Source: Escherichia phage REP2. Taken from it: a stretch of 64,000 nucleotides of DNA. Below the pieces are notes generated by a model that saw only the letters and a list, made by a program, of their open reading frames with translations, made no database searches and was not told the DNA's origin. Positions 3 through 60,517 of this stretch are shown piece after piece. Location of the stretch: sequence record OQ174501.1; one strand, given 5' to 3'. The position numbers and the translations under genes were made by a program. Position 1 is the first letter of the stretch; every line of letters starts with the position of its first letter.

Positions 3-155
3 AATATTGAAATCACTGGATACAACTGGTTCGGTTGCTCTGAAAATGATTTCCAACATACTGGATTTCGTGCTATTGGACCTACTGGGCAGAAAGTAGA
101 AGGAACCGTGTGTTCTGGTCTATTCTTCAAGGATTCGACTATCCGTTTTAAATAA
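3..155 (+). CDS. Hypothetical protein, C-terminal fragment (5' end outside window)
   Basis: Only frame open from the window edge to TAA at 153-155; sits immediately upstream of gene 39, where T4 has small 39.x ORFs. No start codon in window. Confidence 0.35.
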   Translation, partial: NIEITGYNWFGCSENDFQHTGFRAIGPTGQKVEGTVCSGLFFKDSTIRFK

Positions 156-180
156 AAGGCCTTCGGGCCTTTAGCTTTAT
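155..180 (+). terminator. Hairpin AAAGGCC-TTCG-GGCCTTT with weak T-rich tail
   Basis: Perfect 7-bp stem with TTCG loop directly after the upstream stop codon; tail TTAGCTTTAT is only moderately U-rich. Confidence 0.45.
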
Positions 181-224
181 GATTACCGGAGTATAATATT
201 CCCGAAACCAAACGAGGATAAGTG

Positions 225-14021: not shown

Positions 14022-14804
14022 TTATACTCTTGGACCATATATTGCTCCAACATTTTGCCATGTTGGAGCGGACCCTATGACAGCATAACCAGCAGCACCG
14101 CCATCATATTCAGATCCTTGACCGCGAATATTGCATCTACCTCCCGCGGAACCTACTTCACCACCGTTTCCGCCATTATAGATACCATTCACGGATCCTG
14201 AGCCAGGTGCAGAAATAGTACCACCAGTCGCGCCTGATTGCATATCAATAGATCCGCCTGGCGCACCAAAAGGACGACCGCCACCGCCGCCAAAGGTCAA
14301 TCTCATTTGTGAAAAAGGAGAATAATATCCGCCGCCACCGCCACCGCCGCCGCCTGCAATAGCTCCGCCATTATTAATTCTTAGTCTCCCACCAATATCG
14401 TTTTGAATACAATGACCCCCAGCTGAGCCAGGACTATTGCTACCACCATTACCTCCACGACCATACATCGTTACGCCATGTATATTTAACTGAACATATT
14501 CATTTGGTGTATCTCCGTACATGAAGAATAAAGGAACATCTTTAGAATATGATACTAAATCACCTGTAATATTAAACACTATAGGTGCACTACCGGCCTC
14601 AAAACATCTATCTCGGAACCATTGACCATTGAAGTTATGGTCTGCTCCAAGTGTATGAATAATTTCTCGTGAGCGACCTGCAAATTGACTCATCCAGCAA
14701 GGAACACCCAATCTTAATTGACCAGCCGCTTGACTCATCCATCGTTGCCCTGTTTCATTTGCGGCTGAACTTCCAATCCAACCAGGAACACCAACTACTG
14801 CCAT
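14022..14804 (-). CDS. 38: T2-type receptor-recognising adhesin gp38 with glycine-rich motifs
   Basis: 260 codons with poly-Gly runs ([24 protein letters not shown]) separating variable segments, as in T2/K3/Ox2-type gp38; immediately downstream of gene 37. Confidence 0.8.
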
Positions 14805-14816
14805 AATTTATCTCCA

Positions 14817-14835
14817 AAGGGGGCGTTGCCCCCTT
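14817..14835 (-). other. Intercistronic hairpin AAGGGGGC-GTT-GCCCCCTT between genes 37 and 38
   Basis: Perfect 8-bp palindrome with 3-nt loop, directly upstream of the gene 38 SD (GGAG) on the minus strand. Confidence 0.55.
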
Positions 14836-14839
14836 GTTG

Positions 14840-17785
14840 TTAGAATTTAAAATATTTACTAATTTTGCGAGCAATTTTAGTAAAGAAAGGAGTTTTCAAT
14901 TCTTTAATTTCTTCACTCATTTCCTGAATAGCCTTAATTAAAAGAGCATTCACAGCAGAGTTAGAAATTGTCAGAACATCAGATCCATCAACTTCAACTT
15001 TAGATACAGCTTCCGGTAATTCCTTTTCAAGGTCCTGAGCAATAATACCAACTTCACGTTTAATAACGCTACGGTCTTTAATAGACTTAACTTTATCGTA
15101 AATATAAACTTTCAGTCGGCATACTTTTTCGACTGCTCCATATTCTAATTCTTCTTTATTAATCTTGAGACGGGAGTCAGAACGAATATACACATCGCTA
15201 AAGCTACCATTTCCTGGTGTATAAAAGAATCCATCATGATGGAATTCAAACACAGCTTGTGGGTGTCCAGCATCAGGAGAAGCCTCCGTGGATCCGACAC
15301 GAATGATTGCTTGCCCCCACTGTGATGGAATACGACGCATACCAAAGTCAACAGCGGTGCTATATCCTTGATTGGTTATAACGCTTCTTGCTTTAAGAAT
15401 AGGATAATAACAATCCTGTGAAACATAACCATGATCAACGAATAATGGAGCTTCTACTCGCCATTGGTTGCCCCAATCACCCGGTTGTCTAGCAATCCAT
15501 CCAGAACCGTTAATGTGTACACGGTCGCGGTTAACGTTAACCATTGCGGTATTTTGCGGGTTTAACGCAATCTCACCATTGTTTGTGATATGTACTGCCG
15601 CCTGAGAAGCATAGCTATAAAATGCTAGCGAATTATCAGCACCACCCTTGCCAATATACCAGTTACCAGTCCCGTCTATGTCACCGCGAATATGCAAAGA
15701 ATTACTAGCAGTTGTTGATAATACAATAGAATCATTAGGTGCATTGATTGTTAACCGACCTGTCATCGTATCACCGCCTTTACCTACGCGAGTATTCAAG
15801 GCAGCATCTAAATTTGTCGCATTGTTATATTTCTTCCAGATTGAACCGGCAATATTACCATCTGTATTAAGGAACGCATCACCGACATATACACGTCCTG
15901 GAGATTTAAAATAACCTGACGGCATGAAAGTCCATTGTTTTAACCCATCTGCTGTTCCATTAGCGGATAAATCACCCTGAGCAATGATCTTATATTCGGA
16001 TGTACCTATAGCCATACCAGTGGCAAAGGTGATATTACTTACAGTATTTTTCTGTTTAACAATTGGCGCAAACTGGTTTTTATTTGAATCGTCAATAGCC
16101 TGATATAATGGCGCAATGGTAGTATTCTGATTTGCGTAAGTATTAGAACCAGAACCGCTAGCAGGGGCTTGAATATATGCTCCTGGAGCAAGTGAAATTT
16201 TCTGATTAGCACCAAGATTAACAGCAGCAGTGATATTCAGCAATCCCCTAAAGTTTTGTTGAGCAGTCCAAGTATGTGATCCGTCTTCAAGAACAACACG
16301 GCGACAAGTATTAGTCCTACTTCCTGGATTACCAGCGATACGAACAACGAAATAACGGTAGTTTGTCTGGGATACAGTACCGCGCCAAACCTGAACAGTA
16401 CGCCCTGTGCCAGTGTGTTCGCTAGGACCAACGGAAAACATAACCAAGTTTCCGTCAATCGTCCCCCAATCCATATTTGCTGGCATGTTCTTTATTTTGT
16501 TCAAAGGAACGCTAAACATACTACCAGGAACAAAATCAAAGGTTTGCCAATCTAACTCCGCTAATTGAGCTTTAATACCACCCATACCCAAAGTAATTGG
16601 CAGAGAGTAAGATGTATATACTTCGTTCCATGCACCCCACGCACCACCAGTATATGCACGCTCAAAAATACGTCCGCGAGTAGTTGCGCCTGTTCCGGCA
16701 GTAGTAAATTTTTGGAAAATAGCACCACCAGAAGCACGCTGTTTAACTTCCAGCAAACCAACAATAACAGGCGGCAAACCTTCACCTGTAGGGCAGTTAA
16801 TAACGGCATCGGTGCCTAAAATATTATATAACCCAGGAGTTTTAAAATCATTAAGGTCACCATCATAGAAAGTCGCTGGTGTGCCATGACCAACCTGCTT
16901 CCATTCCTCCCACTTAGGTGCACTAGCATCCCATGCAGCAGCGAGACAACGAGTATAAACCATACCCATGCGGGTAGTATAACGCTGAGTTCTCGTGTAT
17001 AAACCACCTTCAAATATTTCTAAAAATCCTTGTGCGGCTGATCCTTCTTCTGGATAATGGCGATCAAATGATGCGATTGCGCTTGAACTGTTTCGCCATA
17101 AGCCACAATGTTCTAATTCTCCCAAGCTATCAAGGTCAATCGTTTGTGAAAGTGGACGAGTTGACGCTTGAACATTACGCCACACACCCCATGGACCATC
17201 GACGCCATTCCATTTAGCAGATAAGGAACGAATATAGACGTTACCAGATCTTACAGTATAACGCTGAGTGCCAGCAAATTGGCCGGCCACAAACACTTCT
17301 AGTACACCTACGGCATTTTCTTCTGGGAATTTATTTGCTGGTTGCGCATTTGTTGAAGTAGATTTCGACCAAACACCAAGATATTCTTCAATGGGCCCAT
17401 ACGTATCTAAATTAGCATCAGTAGGTAATTCGCCATTATTTTTTATAAATGTTGTGCTATTGACATTTATGTCAGATGGAGTTAAGGTAATGTCTTTTGA
17501 CCCATCAAAAGATATACCATTAATTTTCCTAGGTGTTTGCAATTTAGTAGCTGTGCTAGAATTTCCAATTAAAGTTCCAGTTATATTTTCTGTAACCTCT
17601 AAAGACCCATTTATAGTTCCTCCATATTTTAAACCTAATTCTATAACACTACCTGAGTCATCTTTTGTGAAAATTGTTTTATCTTTTAAGTTTATAGCCA
17701 ATTCACCTTCGGCTAATACTGAAGCAGCAGGACGTTGACCTGCAGTTTTGCTTCTTTTAAATTGTATTTGTTTTAAAGTAGCCAT
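14840..17785 (-). CDS. 37: Long tail fibre distal subunit gp37 with C-terminal intramolecular-chaperone-like domain
   Basis: 981 codons between genes 36 and 38; C-terminal ~115 residues carry a ...[18 protein letters not shown]... motif resembling the autocleavage region of S74-type intramolecular chaperone domains. Confidence 0.85.
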
Positions 17786-30695: not shown

Positions 30696-30975
30696 ATACA
30701 AATCCGACTTTGATGTTAATATTCACCGCGGTACATTTTGGGGAAATTACGTCGGTAAAGATGCTGGCAGCCGAGAGGCTGCCATTGAATTATTCAAAAA
30801 AGATTTTATACGTCGAATTAAATCCGGAGAAATAACTAAAGCACATTTAGAGCCTTTACGTGGAATGAGGCTAGGATGCACATGTAAACCAAAGCCGTGT
30901 CATGGTGATATAATAGCTCATATAGTTAACCGATTGTTTAAAGACGATTTTCAAGTTGAGGACTTATGCAATTAA
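30649..30975 (+). CDS. DUF4326-like protein (108 aa)
   Basis: Motifs FWGNYVG...RE.A...F and [20 protein letters not shown] match the DUF4326 signature as I recall it; overlaps the previous ORF by 47 nt, so its start is uncertain. Confidence 0.4.
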
Positions 30976-32399
30976 TTAATGTTATCAAAAGTAGTGGTGT
31001 TTCTCAGAGCTTTGACCCGCAAAAAATTATTAAAGTTTTATCTTGGGCAGCTGAAGGAACATCTGTAGATCCTTATGAATTATATGAAAATATTAAATCA
31101 TATCTCCGTGATGGAATGACCACTGATGACATTCAGACTATTGTCATTAAGGCTGCTGCGAATTCTATTTCAGTTGAAGAGCCTGATTATCAATACGTAG
31201 CTGCACGCTGTTTAATGTTTGCTCTTCGTAAGCATGTTTACGGGCAATATGAACCACGTTCATTTATTGACCATATTTCTTACTGTGTAAATGAAGGTAA
31301 ATATGACCCCGAATTATTGTCAAAATATTCAGCAGAAGAAATTACATTTTTAGAATCAAAAATTAAGCACGAACGGGATATGGAATTTACTTATTCCGGG
31401 GCGATGCAATTAAAAGAAAAATATCTAGTTAAAGATAAAACCACTGGTCAAATTTATGAAACTCCACAGTTTGCATTTATGACTATTGGAATGGCATTGC
31501 ATCAAGATGAACCTGTTGATAGATTAAAACATGTTATTCGTTTTTATGAAGCAGTATCTACTCGACAGATTTCACTGCCAACTCCTATTATGGCTGGTTG
31601 CCGTACTCCGACTCGACAGTTCAGTTCATGCGTTGTTATTGAGGCAGGAGATTCATTGAAGTCTATCAATAAGGCTTCCGCTTCGATTGTTGAATATATC
31701 TCTAAACGCGCTGGAATTGGTATTAACGTTGGTATGATTCGTGCTGAAGGTTCTAAGATTGGCATGGGTGAAGTACGCCATACTGGTGTTATTCCTTTTT
31801 GGAAACATTTTCAGACTGCAGTTAAATCATGTTCACAGGGTGGAATTCGTGGCGGCGCTGCTACTGCTTATTATCCTATTTGGCATTTGGAAGTTGAAAA
31901 TCTTCTTGTTTTGAAAAATAACAAAGGCGTAGAAGAAAACCGCATTCGTCATATGGATTATGGTGTTCAACTGAATGATTTGATGATGGAACGTTTTGGA
32001 AAGAACGATTACATTACTTTGTTCAGTCCCCATGAAATGGGCGGAGAGCTTTATTATTCTTATTTTAAAGACCAAGACCGTTTCCGTGAATTGTATGAAG
32101 CCGCAGAAAAAGACCCTAATATTCGTAAAAAGCGTATTAAAGCTCGTGAACTATTTGAATTGCTCATGACTGAACGCTCAGGAACAGCAAGGATTTATGT
32201 ACAGTTCATTGATAATACGAATAACTATACTCCATTTATTCGTGAAAAGGCACCTATTCGTCAGAGTAACTTGTGCTGTGAAATTGCTATTCCAACAAAT
32301 GACGTGAATAGCCAACAAACCCGTTTAATCAAAATTAAGAAGTCGGATGTAGCTAAGTTTTATGAAGCTAATCCTGGCGGTATAATTCAAAGCAAATAA
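30966..32399 (+). CDS. nrdA: Ribonucleotide reductase alpha subunit, N-terminal piece (477 aa), truncated by insertion
   Basis: ATP-cone N-terminus and class I core up to the active-site segment SNLCCEIAIPTNDVN; then 29 unrelated codons and a stop. Confidence 0.85.
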   Translation: MQLINVIKSSGVSQSFDPQKIIKVLSWAAEGTSVDPYELYENIKSYLRDGMTTDDIQTIVIKAAANSISVEEPDYQYVAARCLMFALRKHVYGQYEPRSFIDHISYCVNEGKYDPELLSKYSAEEITFLESKIKHERDMEFTYSGAMQLKEKYLVKDKTTGQIYETPQFAFMTIGMALHQDEPVDRLKHVIRFYEAVSTRQISLPTPIMAGCRTPTRQFSSCVVIEAGDSLKSINKASASIVEYISKRAGIGINVGMIRAEGSKIGMGEVRHTGVIPFWKHFQTAVKSCSQGGIRGGAATAYYPIWHLEVENLLVLKNNKGVEENRIRHMDYGVQLNDLMMERFGKNDYITLFSPHEMGGELYYSYFKDQDRFRELYEAAEKDPNIRKKRIKARELFELLMTERSGTARIYVQFIDNTNNYTPFIREKAPIRQSNLCCEIAIPTNDVNSQQTRLIKIKKSDVAKFYEANPGGIIQSK

Positions 32400-33150
32400 A
32401 GTACACAGACCGTTAATAAATAATCCATAACAAGAGGAAAAGTTATGGATTATTCTAAAATTTACAATAACCTTATTTCTAAAGCTAAGAACAGAAAATT
32501 AGATTGCTATACCGAATCACACCATATTATACCTCTGTGTATTGGTGGTTCTGATACAAAGGAAAACCTGGTAGATTTGACACCCGAAGAGCATTACATA
32601 GCTCATCAATTATTAGTAAAGATATATCCAGATAATCATAAATTGGTATTTGCCGCTAATATGATGTGTGTTTATTCTGAAGATAATATTGAACGAAAGA
32701 ACACCAATAAACGCCATGGGTGGCTTAGAAGAAAATTGGCTATTTCTGTATCTGAAAATAATAAAGGCAAACCAGCTTGGAACAAAGGTATTCCGGTAAC
32801 TGACGAGCATAGAGAAAAACTTCAAACAACTTGGGTATTTACTTTCCCGGACGGTCATGAAGAAATCCATAAAGGCCTAAGAGAATTTTGCGAACTACAT
32901 TCACTCAATGCTTCGGCAATGTCGGCCGTATGCAAAGGCAAAAGGTCTCAACATAAAGGCTTTAAGTGTCGAAAGCTTGATAATATCTCTGAAAACGATA
33001 ATCAAGAATACGTCAGTAAACCTCATCCAAAGGGATTAAAACCCCATAACTTAATTGCTGTAAAAATAAACGGTATAGAATATCAATCAATACATCGAGC
33101 ATCTAAAGCTCTAGGAATATCTCGAAAAAAGGTAGAAGAATTAAATGAAT
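32310..33150 (+). mobile_element. Homing-endonuclease gene insertion splitting nrdA (about 0.84 kb)
   Basis: Segment between the last conserved NrdA codon (about 32309) and resumption of NrdA-like sequence (about 33151) carries only a free-standing HNH endonuclease ORF. Confidence 0.5.
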
Positions 33151-33155
33151 ATTGA
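32445..33155 (+). CDS. HNH homing endonuclease (Mob-like, HNH plus NUMOD/HTH modules)
   Basis: N-terminal HNH motif (ESHHIIPLCIGGSDTKENLVDLTPEEHYIAH), NUMOD3-like KPAWNKGIPVTDEHREKL, C-terminal HTH-like segment; own RBS AAGAGGAAAAG. Confidence 0.8.
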   Translation: MDYSKIYNNLISKAKNRKLDCYTESHHIIPLCIGGSDTKENLVDLTPEEHYIAHQLLVKIYPDNHKLVFAANMMCVYSEDNIERKNTNKRHGWLRRKLAISVSENNKGKPAWNKGIPVTDEHREKLQTTWVFTFPDGHEEIHKGLREFCELHSLNASAMSAVCKGKRSQHKGFKCRKLDNISENDNQEYVSKPHPKGLKPHNLIAVKINGIEYQSIHRASKALGISRKKVEELNEY

Positions 33156-34134
33156 TTATGAATTTGTAGATGAATTTTACGAAGATGATGAGTATACAAC
33201 AATACAAGTTATTGAAAACAAAGGTGAAGTGGGCCTCTGTACTCTCTCTGCATTCGTACTGGATAATTTTGACTGGCAAGACCAAGATAAAATTAATGAA
33301 TTGGCAGAAGTCCAGGTTCGTGCTCTTGATAATCTTTTGGATTACCAAGGATATCCAGTTCCTGAAGCAGAAAAAGCTAAAAAGCGTCGTAACCTCGGTG
33401 TAGGTGTTACTAACTATGCAGCTTGGTTGGCAAGTAACTTTGCTTCTTATGAAGATGCTAACGATTTAACACATGAACTATTTGAGAGATTACAGTATGG
33501 ACTCATTAAAGCATCCATTAAACTCGCCAAAGAAAAAGGACCTTGTGAATATTATTCAGACACTCGTTGGTCTCGAGGCGAATTACCTATCGACTGGTAC
33601 AATAAAAAGATTGACCAAATCGCAGCTCCAAAATACGTTTGTGACTGGTCGTCGCTGCGGGAAGACCTTAAGCTCTTTGGCATCCGTAATAGCACATTAT
33701 CAGCACTTATGCCATGTGAGTCATCTTCCCAAGTTTCTAACAGTACAAACGGTATCGAGCCTCCACGTGGACCAGTCTCTGTTAAAGAATCAAAAGAGGG
33801 CTCCTTTAATCAAGTCGTGCCCAATATTGAGCATAACATAGACCTTTATGATTATACATGGAAATTAGCTAAGAAAGGTAATAAACCTTATCTTACGCAG
33901 GTAGCTATTATGCTGAAATGGGTTTGTCAATCAGCTTCGGCGAATACATACTATGACCCCCAAATCTTCCCTAAAGGCAAGGTTCCAATGTCAATAATGA
34001 TTGATGACCTTTTGTATTTCTGGTATTTTGGCGGAAAAAATTTCTATTATCATAATACCCGTGACGGTTCTGGTACTGATGATTATGAAATAGAAACTCC
34101 AAAAGCTGAAGATTGTTCATCCTGTAAATTATGA
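33145..34134 (+). CDS. nrdA: Ribonucleotide reductase alpha subunit, C-terminal piece (329 aa)
   Basis: Begins MNIDYEFVDEF... and continues with GEVGLCTLSAF and the conserved C-terminal CxxC tail; ATG overlaps the endonuclease stop. Confidence 0.85.
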   Translation: MNIDYEFVDEFYEDDEYTTIQVIENKGEVGLCTLSAFVLDNFDWQDQDKINELAEVQVRALDNLLDYQGYPVPEAEKAKKRRNLGVGVTNYAAWLASNFASYEDANDLTHELFERLQYGLIKASIKLAKEKGPCEYYSDTRWSRGELPIDWYNKKIDQIAAPKYVCDWSSLREDLKLFGIRNSTLSALMPCESSSQVSNSTNGIEPPRGPVSVKESKEGSFNQVVPNIEHNIDLYDYTWKLAKKGNKPYLTQVAIMLKWVCQSASANTYYDPQIFPKGKVPMSIMIDDLLYFWYFGGKNFYYHNTRDGSGTDDYEIETPKAEDCSSCKL

Positions 34135-34185: not shown

Positions 34186-35364
34186 ATGAGCACAGTTTTT
34201 AATACAAATCCAGTTGATGTTTTAAAAGAACCTATGTTTTTTGGTTCAGGTCTTGGTATTGCGCGTTATGATATTCAACGTCATAAAGTTTTTGAAGATT
34301 TAACCGAAAAGCAGTTGTCATTTTTCTGGCGTCCTGAAGAAGTAAACTTAATGATGGATGCTGCACAGTTTAATAAGCTTCCTCAATATCAGCAGAATAT
34401 TTTTACTAATAATCTGAAGTATCAATCACTTCTGGATAGCATTCAGGGTCGTGCACCGTCTGCTGTACTTATGTCGTTAATTTCAGACCCAAGTCTTGAT
34501 ACATGGGTTGCTACATGGACTTTTAGTGAAACTATTCACAGTCGTTCATACACTCATATTATGCGAAATCTTTATACTGATCCGTCAAAGGTATTTGATG
34601 AGATTGTATTAGATAAAGCTATCATGAAACGTGCTGAATCTATTGGTCGTTATTATGATGATGTTCTGGTTAAGACGCGCGAATGGGAAAATGCAAAAGA
34701 AATTTTTAAATGTTTTTCCGAAAATGAATATGATTTAGATGCATATTCAAATAGTCTTATGCATGTGGAAGAATGTAAATATGCATTGATGAAGTCGCTT
34801 TATCTCTGCCTTCATGTTATCAATGCCCTGGAAGCTATTCGTTTTTATGTATCCTTTGCATGTACTTTCAACTTCCATAAAAATATGGAAATCATGGAAG
34901 GTAATGCGAAGATTATGAAATTCATTGCTCGAGACGAACAACTCCACCTTAAAGGCACCCAGTATATTATTCGTCAGCTCCAACTTGGCACTGATGGTGA
35001 TGAATGGGTTAAAATTGCCAAAGAGTGTGAACAAGAAGCAGTTGATATTTTCATGGAAGTTAACCGCCAAGAAAAAGATTGGGCAGTTCATTTATTTAAA
35101 GATGGCGATGTTCCTGGATTAAATACAAATAGCATGTGGAGCTTTATTGATTACTTAACTGTGTCTCGTATGAAACAGTGTGGTCTTCCATGTCCAATTA
35201 CCGATGCTCCGGTTAAACATCCATATCCTTGGATTCGTGAATACCTTAATTCTGATAATGTTCAATCCGCGCCGCAAGAAGTAGAACTGTCATCTTATCT
35301 TGTTGCACAGATTGATAATGATGTTGATGATAAAGTTATGATGAGTTTTAAAAAATATTTTTAA
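34186..35364 (+). CDS. nrdB: Ribonucleotide reductase beta subunit (uninterrupted, no intron)
   Basis: 392 codons as a single ORF with ferritin-like R2 motifs; T4 NrdB about 388 aa after splicing. Confidence 0.9.
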   Translation: MSTVFNTNPVDVLKEPMFFGSGLGIARYDIQRHKVFEDLTEKQLSFFWRPEEVNLMMDAAQFNKLPQYQQNIFTNNLKYQSLLDSIQGRAPSAVLMSLISDPSLDTWVATWTFSETIHSRSYTHIMRNLYTDPSKVFDEIVLDKAIMKRAESIGRYYDDVLVKTREWENAKEIFKCFSENEYDLDAYSNSLMHVEECKYALMKSLYLCLHVINALEAIRFYVSFACTFNFHKNMEIMEGNAKIMKFIARDEQLHLKGTQYIIRQLQLGTDGDEWVKIAKECEQEAVDIFMEVNRQEKDWAVHLFKDGDVPGLNTNSMWSFIDYLTVSRMKQCGLPCPITDAPVKHPYPWIREYLNSDNVQSAPQEVELSSYLVAQIDNDVDDKVMMSFKKYF

Positions 35365-35368
35365 GGAG

Positions 35369-35384
35369 TGGGCCGCAAGGCCCA
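35369..35384 (+). other. Hairpin TGGGCC-GCAA-GGCCCA between the denA SD and start codon
   Basis: Perfect 6-bp stem with GCAA loop; GGAG at 35365-35368 lies 5' of it and the ATG at 35392 lies 3' of it. Confidence 0.55.
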
Positions 35385-35391
35385 TTTTATT

Positions 35392-36979
<1,588 letters not shown>

Positions 36980-48430: not shown

Positions 48431-48612
48431 AAGCTTACTTAGAAACAATTGTCGTGGCTCAAAAAGAAGGTGGAGATGTTTCCACTGCGGTATCGCAGGT
48501 TATTCTTGAATTCCCAGATAAACTAGCATATGATGAATTCACGGAAAGATTTGATCCATATGAAAAAGGTCCAAAGTTTGAAGTATATCGTACTCTTTTA
48601 GCTCTCTATTAA
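48427..48612 (+). CDS. Hypothetical protein (61 aa)
   Basis: ORF with ATGA overlap to the ligase; terminator follows. Confidence 0.45.
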   Translation: MKAYLETIVVAQKEGGDVSTAVSQVILEFPDKLAYDEFTERFDPYEKGPKFEVYRTLLALY

Positions 48613-48614
48613 TT

Positions 48615-48640
48615 AAAGGCCTTCGGGCCTTTAATTTTAT
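48615..48640 (+). terminator. Terminator-like hairpin AAAGGCC-TTCG-GGCCTTT plus AATTTTAT
   Basis: Perfect 7-bp stem with UUCG loop and a short T-rich tail. Confidence 0.6.
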
Positions 48641-48645
48641 AAATA
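48638..48645 (+). promoter_or_regulatory. Late promoter TATAAATA (alt)
   Basis: Exact TATAAATA about 24 nt upstream of the alt ATG. Confidence 0.65.
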
Positions 48646-59492: not shown

Positions 59493-60119
59493 ATGTATGA
59501 ATACAAATTTGATGTGAGAGTTGGTTCTAAAATAATCAACTGTCGCGCATTTACTCTTAAAGAATATCTAGAACTTATTACTGCTAAAAAGAACGGTTCA
59601 GTAGAAGAGATCGTTAAAAAGCTAATTAAAGACTGTACAAATGCAAAAGATTTAAACCGTCAAGAATCAGAATTATTGCTGATTCATTTATGGGCGCATT
59701 CTCTTGGAGAAGTTAATCACGAAAACTCCTGGAAGTGCACCTGTGGAACTGAAATACCAACCCATATAAATCTATTACATACACAAATAGATGCACCAGA
59801 AGACCTCTGGTATACACTGGGTGACATTAAAATTAAGTTCCATTACCCTAAAATTTTTGATGATAAAAACATAGCCAACATGATAGTATCATGTATAGAA
59901 ACGATTCATGCTAACGGTGAAAGCATTCCAATTGAAGACTTAAATGAAAAAGAGTTGGAAGATTTATATTCTATCATCACAGAGTCAGATATTGTAGCTA
60001 TAAAAGATATGCTTTTAAAGCCTACTGTTTATTTGGCTGTTCCAATTAAGTGTCCAGAGTGTGGAAAAACTCACGCTCATGTAATAAGAGGACTCAAAGA
60101 ATTCTTTGAGCTATTGTAA
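59493..60119 (+). CDS. 26: Baseplate hub subunit gp26
   Basis: 208 codons as in T4 gp26. Confidence 0.8.
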
Positions 60120-60517
60120 TGGCAAATATTAATAAGCTTTATTCTGACATTGACCCAGAAATGAAAATGGATTGGGACAAAGATGTTTCAAGATCTCTTG
60201 GATTAAGGTCAATTAAAAATAGCCTTTTAGGAATTATTACAACCAGGAAAGGGTCAAGGCCATTTGACCCAGAATTTGGATGTGATTTATCTGATCAGCT
60301 TTTTGAGAATATGACTCCTCTTACTGCTGATACTGTTGAGCGTAACATTGAAAGCGCAGTAAGAAACTACGAGCCACGTATTGATAAATTAGCAGTTAAT
60401 GTAATACCGGTTTATGATGATTATACTCTGATAGTAGAAATACGCTTTTCAGTCATCGATAACCCTGATGATATTGAGCAGATAAAACTACAACTAGCTT
60501 CCAGTAACAGAGTATAA
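60119..60517 (+). CDS. 25: Baseplate wedge subunit gp25
   Basis: 132 codons as in T4 gp25; overlapping start with gene 26 stop. Confidence 0.85.
   Translation: MANINKLYSDIDPEMKMDWDKDVSRSLGLRSIKNSLLGIITTRKGSRPFDPEFGCDLSDQLFENMTPLTADTVERNIESAVRNYEPRIDKLAVNVIPVYDDYTLIVEIRFSVIDNPDDIEQIKLQLASSNRV

Follow-up and report, generated by a model that had tools for sequence, protein, structure and literature searches.

The analysed DNA, a stretch of 64,000 nucleotides from Escherichia phage REP2 (the window in what follows), is the base-for-base reverse complement of positions 24855-88854 of Escherichia phage REP3 (OQ174502.1), a Tequatrovirus. The gene table of REP3 was carried over to this 64-kb window to define its gene starts.

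Anatomy of the nrdB-denA junction

In the window, nrdB is followed on the same strand by denA, the gene for endonuclease II (EndoII) (Table 1). The interval between the two genes is 27 nt long, and together with the flanking codons it reads UAA-GGAG-UGGGCC-GCAA-GGCCCA-UUUUAUU-AUG. The nrdB stop codon itself forms the 5' end of the element and runs directly into GGAG, which is followed by a perfect stem of 6 bp, five of them GC pairs, closed by a loop of the GNRA class. Seven nucleotides remain between the hairpin and the denA ATG. An earlier note on this DNA had placed the GGAG and the ATG correctly to the base, and the perfect 16-nt hairpin that it described (TGGGCC-GCAA-GGCCCA) is seen at 35369-84. 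The 24 nt that it gave between GGAG and start codon results from counting from the final G of GGAG up to the A of the ATG; 23 nt lie in between.

Table 1. Features of the nrdB-denA junction, in window coordinates (SD, Shine-Dalgarno sequence).
Feature	Position	Strand	Basis
nrdB coding sequence, 392 aa, without intron	34186..35364	+	ORF list; REP3 annotation 'ribonucleoside diphosphate reductase small subunit'
nrdB stop codon TAA	35362-35364	+	sequence
UAAGGAG (nrdB stop UAA and GGAG), proposed denA SD	35362..35368	+	complementary to the 16S rRNA 3' end over 7 consecutive nt
GGAG	35365-35368	+	sequence
In-frame GTG, denA start in T4 RefSeq (144 aa), probably no real start codon	35368..35370	+	shares bases with the SD; paired within the stem
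Hairpin 5' arm UGGGCC	35369..35374	+	sequence; pair probability ~1.0; covariation
GCAA tetraloop, GNRA class	35375..35378	+	sequence
Hairpin 3' arm GGCCCA	35379..35384	+	sequence; pair probability ~1.0; covariation
UUUUAUU, proposed spacer between SD and AUG in the folded RNA, also U-tract of the terminator-like signal	35385..35391	+	
denA start codon ATG	35392-35394	+	
denA coding sequence, endonuclease II (EndoII), GIY-YIG, 136 aa	35392..35802	+	ORF list; REP3 annotation

We take the denA start to be the ATG at 35392. The T4 RefSeq record begins denA further upstream, as does the record of phage Bp7, and the in-frame GTG or ATG used in these two records overlaps both the SD and the stem. This upstream codon is probably not the start of denA: other genera lack it or have it in another frame (as in EcS1), it has no SD ahead of it, and the ATG is the start used in experimental constructs. 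Across genera, the DenA N-terminus counted from the ATG is conserved, in contrast to the in-frame starts further upstream. In the crystallised EndoII (PDB 2WSH), as in published constructs, the protein starts with MKEIATEY. DenA protein has been detected during T4 infection (T4 omics supplement). Gene-finding and ribosome-binding-site scoring tools appear to mishandle sites of this kind, with the T4 RefSeq GTG placed inside the hairpin and the 'RBS' of another record placed in the loop.

The hairpin is predicted to be highly stable. In isolation it folds with -11.6 kcal/mol, and in a fold of its 200-nt context the stem pairs with a probability of ~1.0. The surrounding 81-nt region has a z-score of -3.0, with 2 of 200 shuffled sequences folding equally well, and the fold upstream of denA (-16.8 kcal/mol) is the most stable among all annotated gene starts in the window. 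A scan of the whole window at Rfam gathering thresholds found no RNA family.

Spacing and conservation of the junction

To place the denA site in its genomic context, 100 gene starts in the window were scored against the 3' end of 16S rRNA. An SD of -4 kcal/mol or better was found at a distance of 3-8 nt in 77 of these 100 starts, with a mode at 5-6 nt. At denA, the duplex between UAAGGAG and the anti-SD reaches -8.7 kcal/mol, and 22-23 nt of linear RNA separate this motif from the AUG. This bears out the claim that GGAG is too distant to act as a normal SD. Within 18 nt of the ATG no usable SD was found, the best candidate being an AAGG of -3.0 kcal/mol that is buried in the stem. Removing the 16 hairpin bases brings the denA spacing to 6-7 nt, the modal spacing of the genome, and the expectation that folding leaves the SD about 7 nt from the ATG thus holds. 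The motif TAAGGAG occurs three times on sense strands in 64 kb; two occurrences are ordinary ribosome-binding sites, and the third is the denA junction.

The order SD, hairpin, ATG was found at only two of the 100 gene starts, denA and gene 25 (ATG 60119), whose GAGGA SD lies at 26 nt and which behaves like denA in this analysis. The window has approximately eight other GC-rich hairpins between genes, five with a UUCG loop, and in all of them the order is hairpin, SD, ATG. This ordinary T-even module, found for example upstream of the window starts 61703(-), 44706, 8366, 5705, 5467 and 4500, resembles the denA element in that a GC stem with a stable tetraloop (UUCG or GNRA) immediately follows a stop codon, often with a U-rich tail. 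Its SD, however, lies 3' of the hairpin at normal spacing, and the hairpin therefore has no part in initiation.

Junctions between nrdB and denA were gathered from 18 GenBank phages and 36 IMG/VR contigs, yielding 23 distinct junctions. All but one of these (22/23) share the same succession of a TAA stop, a purine SD, a GC stem with a tetraloop, 6-10 mostly U-rich nucleotides and an ATG. They come from at least 11 named genera (Tequatro-, Mosig-, Gelderland-, Kagamiyama-, Dhaka-, Winkler-, Jiaoda-, Karam-, Marfa-, Teguna- and Moonvirus), with further junction types in unnamed IMG/VR lineages. The stop codon and the purine motif are kept in every one of the 22 hairpin-bearing types, and the SD adjoins the nrdB stop in each. 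Across these types the purine motif varies between GGAG, GGAC, GGAA, GGAU and AGGAU, and more rarely GGU, GGC and GAG. The GC stems span 4-7 bp. Most types have a UUCG loop. In the T4 group the loop is GCAA, or GUAA in one close relative; of the other types, one has UUUG and another a loop of 5 nt.

The geometry of the junction is tightly kept. Stop and ATG are 26-28 nt apart in 20 types and 28 nt apart in L031, and the remaining one of the 22 types has 32 nt together with a stem that is two pairs longer. The linear SD spacing is 20-25 nt in all 22 types, and once the hairpin is excised it falls to 6-9 nt in 21 of them. No SD at a normal position was found in any of the 22 types, the best score there being not beyond -3.7 kcal/mol, while the upstream SD scores between -3.9 and -9.1 kcal/mol. 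Four types have a weak upstream SD of about -4 kcal/mol, which counts against a role of this motif in denA initiation.

Covariation was assessed on a MAFFT alignment of 20 distinct junctions over a 6-pair stem. Pairing is possible in 95% of the stem cells, four of the six pairs have changed on both sides (22 cells), and none of 500 shuffles reached the observed covariation score. When the 3' partner was slid by 1-3 columns, pairing fell to 21-67%. The structure of the stem is thus kept while its sequence varies, and the loop class switches between GNRA and UUCG. A chance origin of the element was rejected on the combined grounds of the shuffles, the covariation and the rarity of TAAGGAG.

Outside this set of junctions, the upstream region of denA is organized in a different manner. 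Yersinia phage fHe-Yen9-01, itself one of the Tevenvirinae, has neither the SD nor the hairpin, and its nrdB stop overlaps the denA start as ATGA. This junction is recombinant, its nrdB part coming from another lineage, and the replacement of the module is translational coupling; the module is thus replaceable. More distant DenA homologues, with 26-51% identity, show other upstream arrangements. In Krischvirus (RB49-like phages), denA is preceded by a terminator hairpin, then GAGGAAAGGA, then the ATG, which is the ordinary order. The Aeromonas phages 25, Ah1 and Assk lack the hairpin, and their denA start overlaps the stop of the upstream gene. Slopekvirus likewise has no hairpin, and the upstream gene ends 3 nt ahead of the denA start. 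Because these distant homologues are arranged otherwise, the reversed layout belongs to the nrdB-denA junction of the Tevenvirinae.

Proposed initiation at denA across a hairpin

The closest precedents for this layout are found in phage T4. There, an RNA structure that separates SD and AUG reduces the effective spacing, at gene 38 from 22 to 5 nt and at gene 25 from 27 to 11 nt (PMC3014915). Mutations that destabilise the structure lower initiation, and for gene 25 the split site has been confirmed both with reporters and by DMS probing (Nivinskas 1999; Malys and Nivinskas 2009, as reviewed in PMC3014915). Both precedents had been named in the earlier note, and both are real. The same review of post-transcriptional control in T4 does not mention denA. 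We found no prior description of the denA hairpin in the searchable literature.

The T4 gene 37-38 junction, UAA-GGAG-AGGGGC-UUCG-GCCCUU-CUAAAU-AUG, is a near twin of the denA module. Both have a UAA fused to GGAG, a GC-rich stem of 6-8 bp, a stable tetraloop and a short A/U spacer, and the distance from SD to AUG is 22 nt in gene 38 and 23 nt at denA. A covariance model built from 20 denA junctions only ranked the denA site of the window first, at 41.8 bits, and matched the T4 gene 38 site second, over its full length, with 36.3 bits and an E-value of ~1e-4. The next matches of this model in the window were UUCG hairpins without an SD or a real gene start. The loop of T4 gene 38 is UUCG, compared with GCAA in T4-type denA, and UUCG is also the loop at denA in most other genera. 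The two sites differ in two further respects. Gene 38 belongs to the late genes and denA to the pre-replicative ones, and CUAAAU, the tail of gene 38, is not rich in U (tail score of 2.08 vs 4.77 at denA) and therefore lacks terminator character. In the phage studied here, gene 38 is an unrelated T2-type gene with the ordinary order of hairpin followed by SD.

Gene 25 offers a looser parallel within the window itself (GAGG at 60088-91, hairpin at 60093-60110). As at denA, its SD stands at a non-functional linear distance and a hairpin lies between SD and AUG. The gene 25 stem is AU-rich and weaker, with 7 bp and about -8.6 kcal/mol compared with -11.6 kcal/mol or more at denA, and the residual spacing is longer, at 11 nt. 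Both its SD and its hairpin are part of the coding sequence of the preceding gene, and the stop codon of gene 26 overlaps the AUG of gene 25. Moreover, the gene 25 site is reported to be confined to close T-even phages (PMC3014915), while the denA layout extends over at least 11 named genera.

Given its anatomy, spacing, conservation and likeness to gene 38, denA displays every sequence-level trait of the split-SD family. The proposal of the earlier note that denA uses the same device as T4 genes 38 and 25 gains support from the spacing, the covariation, the 22 junction types and the near twin at gene 38. We therefore regard it as likely, from comparison of sequences, that the 27 nt between nrdB and denA act as a structure-bridged ('split') ribosome-binding site which in the T4 group probably serves as a leaky terminator or 3' protector as well. 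The hairpin would in this case raise denA translation. Since the SD lies 22-23 nt from the AUG in the linear RNA and 6-7 nt from it in the folded one, we propose that denA translation needs the folded hairpin.

The hairpin would fold once it has been transcribed. A 30S subunit would then pair with UAAGGAG, with the helix protruding on its platform side, and the 6-7 U-rich nucleotides after the helix would put the AUG into the P site, as suggested by the geometry and by the precedents of genes 25 and 38. Ribosomes ending at the nrdB UAA would melt the stem and may pass straight to the adjoining SD. In the T4 group, some transcripts would probably end at the U-tract.

A possible, though unlikely, alternative is termination-reinitiation, in which ribosomes translating nrdB melt the hairpin, the SD holds the 30S subunit, the hairpin refolds and the same subunit starts denA, with de novo binding playing a minor part. 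The position of the SD next to the upstream stop, in all 22 junction types and at the T4 gene 37-38 junction, is consistent with this route, as is the narrow range of the stop-to-ATG distance (26-28 nt). The exchange of the module for an ATGA overlap without an SD in fHe-Yen9-01, a classic form of coupling, points in the same direction, and the distant DenA genes of Aeromonas phages overlap the upstream stop too. Coupling alone, however, needs neither a covarying hairpin nor a constant excised spacing of 6-9 nt, and split-site function has been established at gene 25 by reporter fusions and structure probing (PMC3014915). The reinitiation and split-site routes can coexist, and sequence analysis does not separate them.

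Possible termination at the end of nrdB and control of denA output

The hairpin also carries the marks of an intrinsic terminator. The nucleotides after the stem are 64% U at denA junctions, compared with 31% U and 46% A at the corresponding positions of other genes. On a TransTermHP-style scale the T4-type tail reaches 4.77, which exceeds the 99th percentile of the window background, and 13 of the 22 junction types have a tail beyond the 95th percentile. A terminator predicted by ARNOLD is annotated at the junction in MK373786. Our own terminator scan of the window did not list the denA hairpin, presumably through greedy stem extension that consumed the U-run. In five junction types, RB69 (2.5), L034/35 and L036 (2.9) and L048 and L049 (2.0), the tails are not terminator-grade (2.9 or less), and the SD, stem and spacing are kept there.

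The suggestion of the earlier note that the hairpin may stabilise the 3' end of nrdB RNA is plausible: the tail of the T4 group is U-rich and terminator-like. This feature is less conserved. In the T4 group, the hairpin probably also functions as a leaky intrinsic terminator or as a protector of the nrdB 3' end against 3' exonucleases, in addition to its proposed role in initiation. In E. coli, a terminator placed a few bp after a stop codon is almost fully repressed by the translating ribosome (PMC4824070). Because the denA hairpin begins 4-5 nt past the nrdB stop codon, a terminator role should be strongly repressed.

Regarding the origin of denA mRNA, neither a MotA box nor a late promoter was found inside nrdB, and a promoter of its own for denA within nrdB was rejected, as the sigma-70-like matches there are not above shuffle expectation. 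With only 7 nt between hairpin and AUG and no such promoter in nrdB, denA must be expressed from read-through transcripts. The Ac3 record annotates a terminator on the opposite strand; this was also rejected, as the annotated genes for ~10 kb on either side all lie on the plus strand and the reverse tail CUCCUU is poor.

A leaky terminator is known from the same nrd cluster of T4. The mobE hairpin, which like that of denA is followed by a short U-tract, terminates 30-50% of transcripts and thereby tunes a downstream nuclease gene (Wilson and Edgell 2009, PMC2790892). Unlike the denA hairpin, it lies within a coding region, has a 9-bp stem and no ribosome-binding role, and has been mapped experimentally.

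It could be argued that the hairpin is a terminator or 3' stabiliser and nothing else, that GGAG does not work as an SD, and that a little DenA is made by SD-independent initiation on the AU-rich read-through leader. The GC stem, the stable tetraloop and the UUUUAUU tail, which stands out against the A-rich spacers of ordinary genes, would suit such a role, as would the ARNOLD prediction and the frequent occurrence of UUCG hairpins at gene ends in this genome. Low expression might also be tolerable or even desirable, given that only catalytically impaired EndoII has been overexpressed (PMC2764454). We nevertheless consider this explanation improbable. Each of the other intergenic hairpins in the window precedes its own SD, whereas the denA hairpin precedes none and has a 7-nt SD just upstream. 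SD motif and spacing are retained at junctions whose tail is not terminator-like, the gene 38 twin manages without a U-tract, and the proximity to the stop codon is again of the kind at which terminators are almost fully repressed.

Alternatively, a hairpin set between a very strong SD and the AUG, together with a partial masking of the SD in the T4 group, might act as a throttle that holds translation of a toxic nuclease below the level of an ordinary site, which would agree with the finding that wild-type EndoII cannot be overexpressed, in contrast to impaired mutants (PMC2764454). The minimum-energy fold of the T4-type junction adds four weak pairs between GGAG and UUUU, worth -4.2 kcal/mol, and the SD is mostly paired in the ensemble, being only 3-25% unpaired in the fold model. 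This partial masking would oppose ribosome binding and therefore weighs against the split-site reading as well. The masking is not conserved, however. The GGAG-UUUU pairing is formed in 69% of cells compared with 74% in shuffles, it shows no compensatory changes and does not rise above the slid controls, and the extension contributes 0 kcal/mol in 9 of the 22 junction types. Sequestration of the SD by the U-tract was accordingly rejected as a conserved feature. A throttle would not require a constant excised spacing at the genomic optimum, and destabilising the gene 25 stem lowers translation (PMC3014915), all of which makes this explanation quite improbable.

Highly improbable is the idea that GGAG is a site of the RegB endoribonuclease, which cuts GGAG/U in intergenic regions of early transcripts and would here part nrdB from denA RNA, leaving a protective hairpin at the 5' end: strong RegB sites (GG*AGRAYARAA) are A-rich on their 3' side where UGGGCCG and a GC stem are found here, secondary structure protects from cleavage, and GGAG or GGAU is present in only ~60% of junction types, with GGAC, GGAA, GGU or GAG in the others. 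A RegA operator in the U-rich tail was rejected as not distinctive, with 6/10 matches to the SELEX consensus, a level common to 10 other genes (5 at the known target rIIB).

As a tentative extension that we hold to be doubtful, a single hairpin at the junction could be both a split ribosome-binding site and a translation-gated attenuator. While stopped at the nrdB UAA, 4 nt ahead of the stem, a ribosome would cover the 5' arm and block folding of the terminator, so that RNA polymerase would enter denA only on translated nrdB messages. Refolding in the wake of the ribosome, the hairpin would then restore the full denA site, with the same 30S subunit possibly being passed to the SD. If true, this arrangement would tie DenA output to NrdB translation with almost no added sequence, and it would explain why the SD lies upstream of the hairpin here, unlike at other junctions.

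Implications for the Tevenvirinae

If the terminator role is real, one compact hairpin would set both the boundary of the nrdB transcript and the translation of denA, which encodes a nuclease whose dose probably needs to be low. An arrangement that keeps denA output modest fits the overexpression of EndoII having been achieved for impaired mutants only (PMC2764454).

Initiation across a hairpin that shortens the distance from SD to AUG is a mechanism already known, and the value of the denA junction lies in the breadth of its conservation and in the series of natural variants that it provides. To our knowledge, only two natural cases are usually cited, T4 genes 38 and 25. On the sequence comparisons presented here, denA would be the third and the most widely conserved of them. 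With 22 natural variants that differ in stem, loop class and tail and share the same geometry, the junction would form a comparative series on how the 30S subunit accommodates a protruding helix.

Reading frame and annotation of the denA start

In the T4-type sequence, the nrdB stop (35362) and the denA ATG (35392) begin 30 nt from each other on the + strand, and the two genes share a frame in which no stop codon lies between these points. A ribosome that read through the UAA would thus make an NrdB-DenA fusion protein. The shared frame is probably incidental, since it is lost in genera where the stop-to-ATG distance is 26 or 28 nt.

The T4 RefSeq and Bp7 records start denA further upstream, at an in-frame GTG or ATG that gives a product of 144 aa. 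This codon is probably mis-annotated as a start: it is not conserved, lies out of frame in EcS1, and is bypassed by the experimental denA constructs, which begin at the downstream ATG. In the record of phage Ac3 (OK040907.1, 770-792), the hairpin carries a terminator label on the opposite strand to denA, and a 3-nt "ribosome_binding_site" is placed within it. Both annotations look like pipeline artefacts that arose from the unusual layout of the junction.

Coordinates of features in the window and in comparison loci
Feature	Position	Strand	Remark
denA-like UUCG hairpin	149-184	+	covariance search
Gene 38 initiation region	about 14802-14850	-	GGGGGC-AAC-GCCCCC hairpin, GGAG, ATG (ordinary order)
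nrdA, N-terminal part	30966-32399	+	
HNH homing-endonuclease ORF	32445-33155	+	between the two nrdA parts
nrdA, C-terminal part	33145-34134	+	
nrdB	34186-35364	+	392 aa
Upstream annotated denA start	35368-35370; 369 in L003 (T4, NC_000866.4); 369 in L008 (Bp7)	+	overlaps SD and hairpin
denA-like UUCG hairpin	48609-48644	+	covariance search
Gene 25 GAGG	60088-91	+	
Gene 25 hairpin	60093-60110	+	CUCAAAG-AAUU-CUUUGAG
Gene 25 ATG	60119	+	overlaps gene 26 stop

The surrounding nrd genes and their transcripts

In T4, the HNH gene mobE sits between nrdA and nrdB. Here, by contrast, an HNH homing-endonuclease ORF lies inside nrdA, splitting it into two parts (30966-34134, +) and overlapping the start of the C-terminal part. 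Because Rfam found no group I intron anywhere in the window, nrdA appears to be a reductase of the "gene in pieces" kind reportedly described for Aeromonas phage Aeh1. The window's nrdB is a single uninterrupted ORF, whereas in T4 RefSeq the gene contains an intron and is joined from two pieces.

In a T4 time-course, denA RNA was classed as "middle" and the flanking nrdB and rnlA RNAs as "early" (supplement of PMC9697503). If the three genes are co-transcribed, this difference in class would be left without explanation.

A junction lacking the module

Yersinia phage fHe-Yen9-01 (KY593455.1, comparison locus L043, near locus position 401) has the only junction with neither SD nor hairpin, the nrdB stop and denA start being joined by an ATGA overlap. 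Its denA side shares 91-92% identity with TG1 and phiR1-RT, while its nrdB side belongs to another lineage, at about 80% to VR5-like phages; these differing affinities mark the junction, on sequence grounds, as recombinant.

Similar hairpins and the order of parts at genes 25 and 38

The covariance search of the window returned AAGGCC-UUCG-GGCCUU hairpins with U-rich tails that resemble the denA module. Neither is accompanied by an SD or a genuine gene start, and all that comes after the first, upstream of gene 39, is an ORF of 4 codons.

The published split ribosome-binding site of gene 25 was found within the window (60088-60121, +). Gene 38 of REP2 encodes a T2-type adhesin of 260 aa. The T4-type gene runs GGAG, hairpin, ATG, whereas the hairpin precedes GGAG in the window's T2-type gene (comparison locus L063, 1021-1055). 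The same gene 38 junction thus carries the same parts in either order, depending on the T-even phage.
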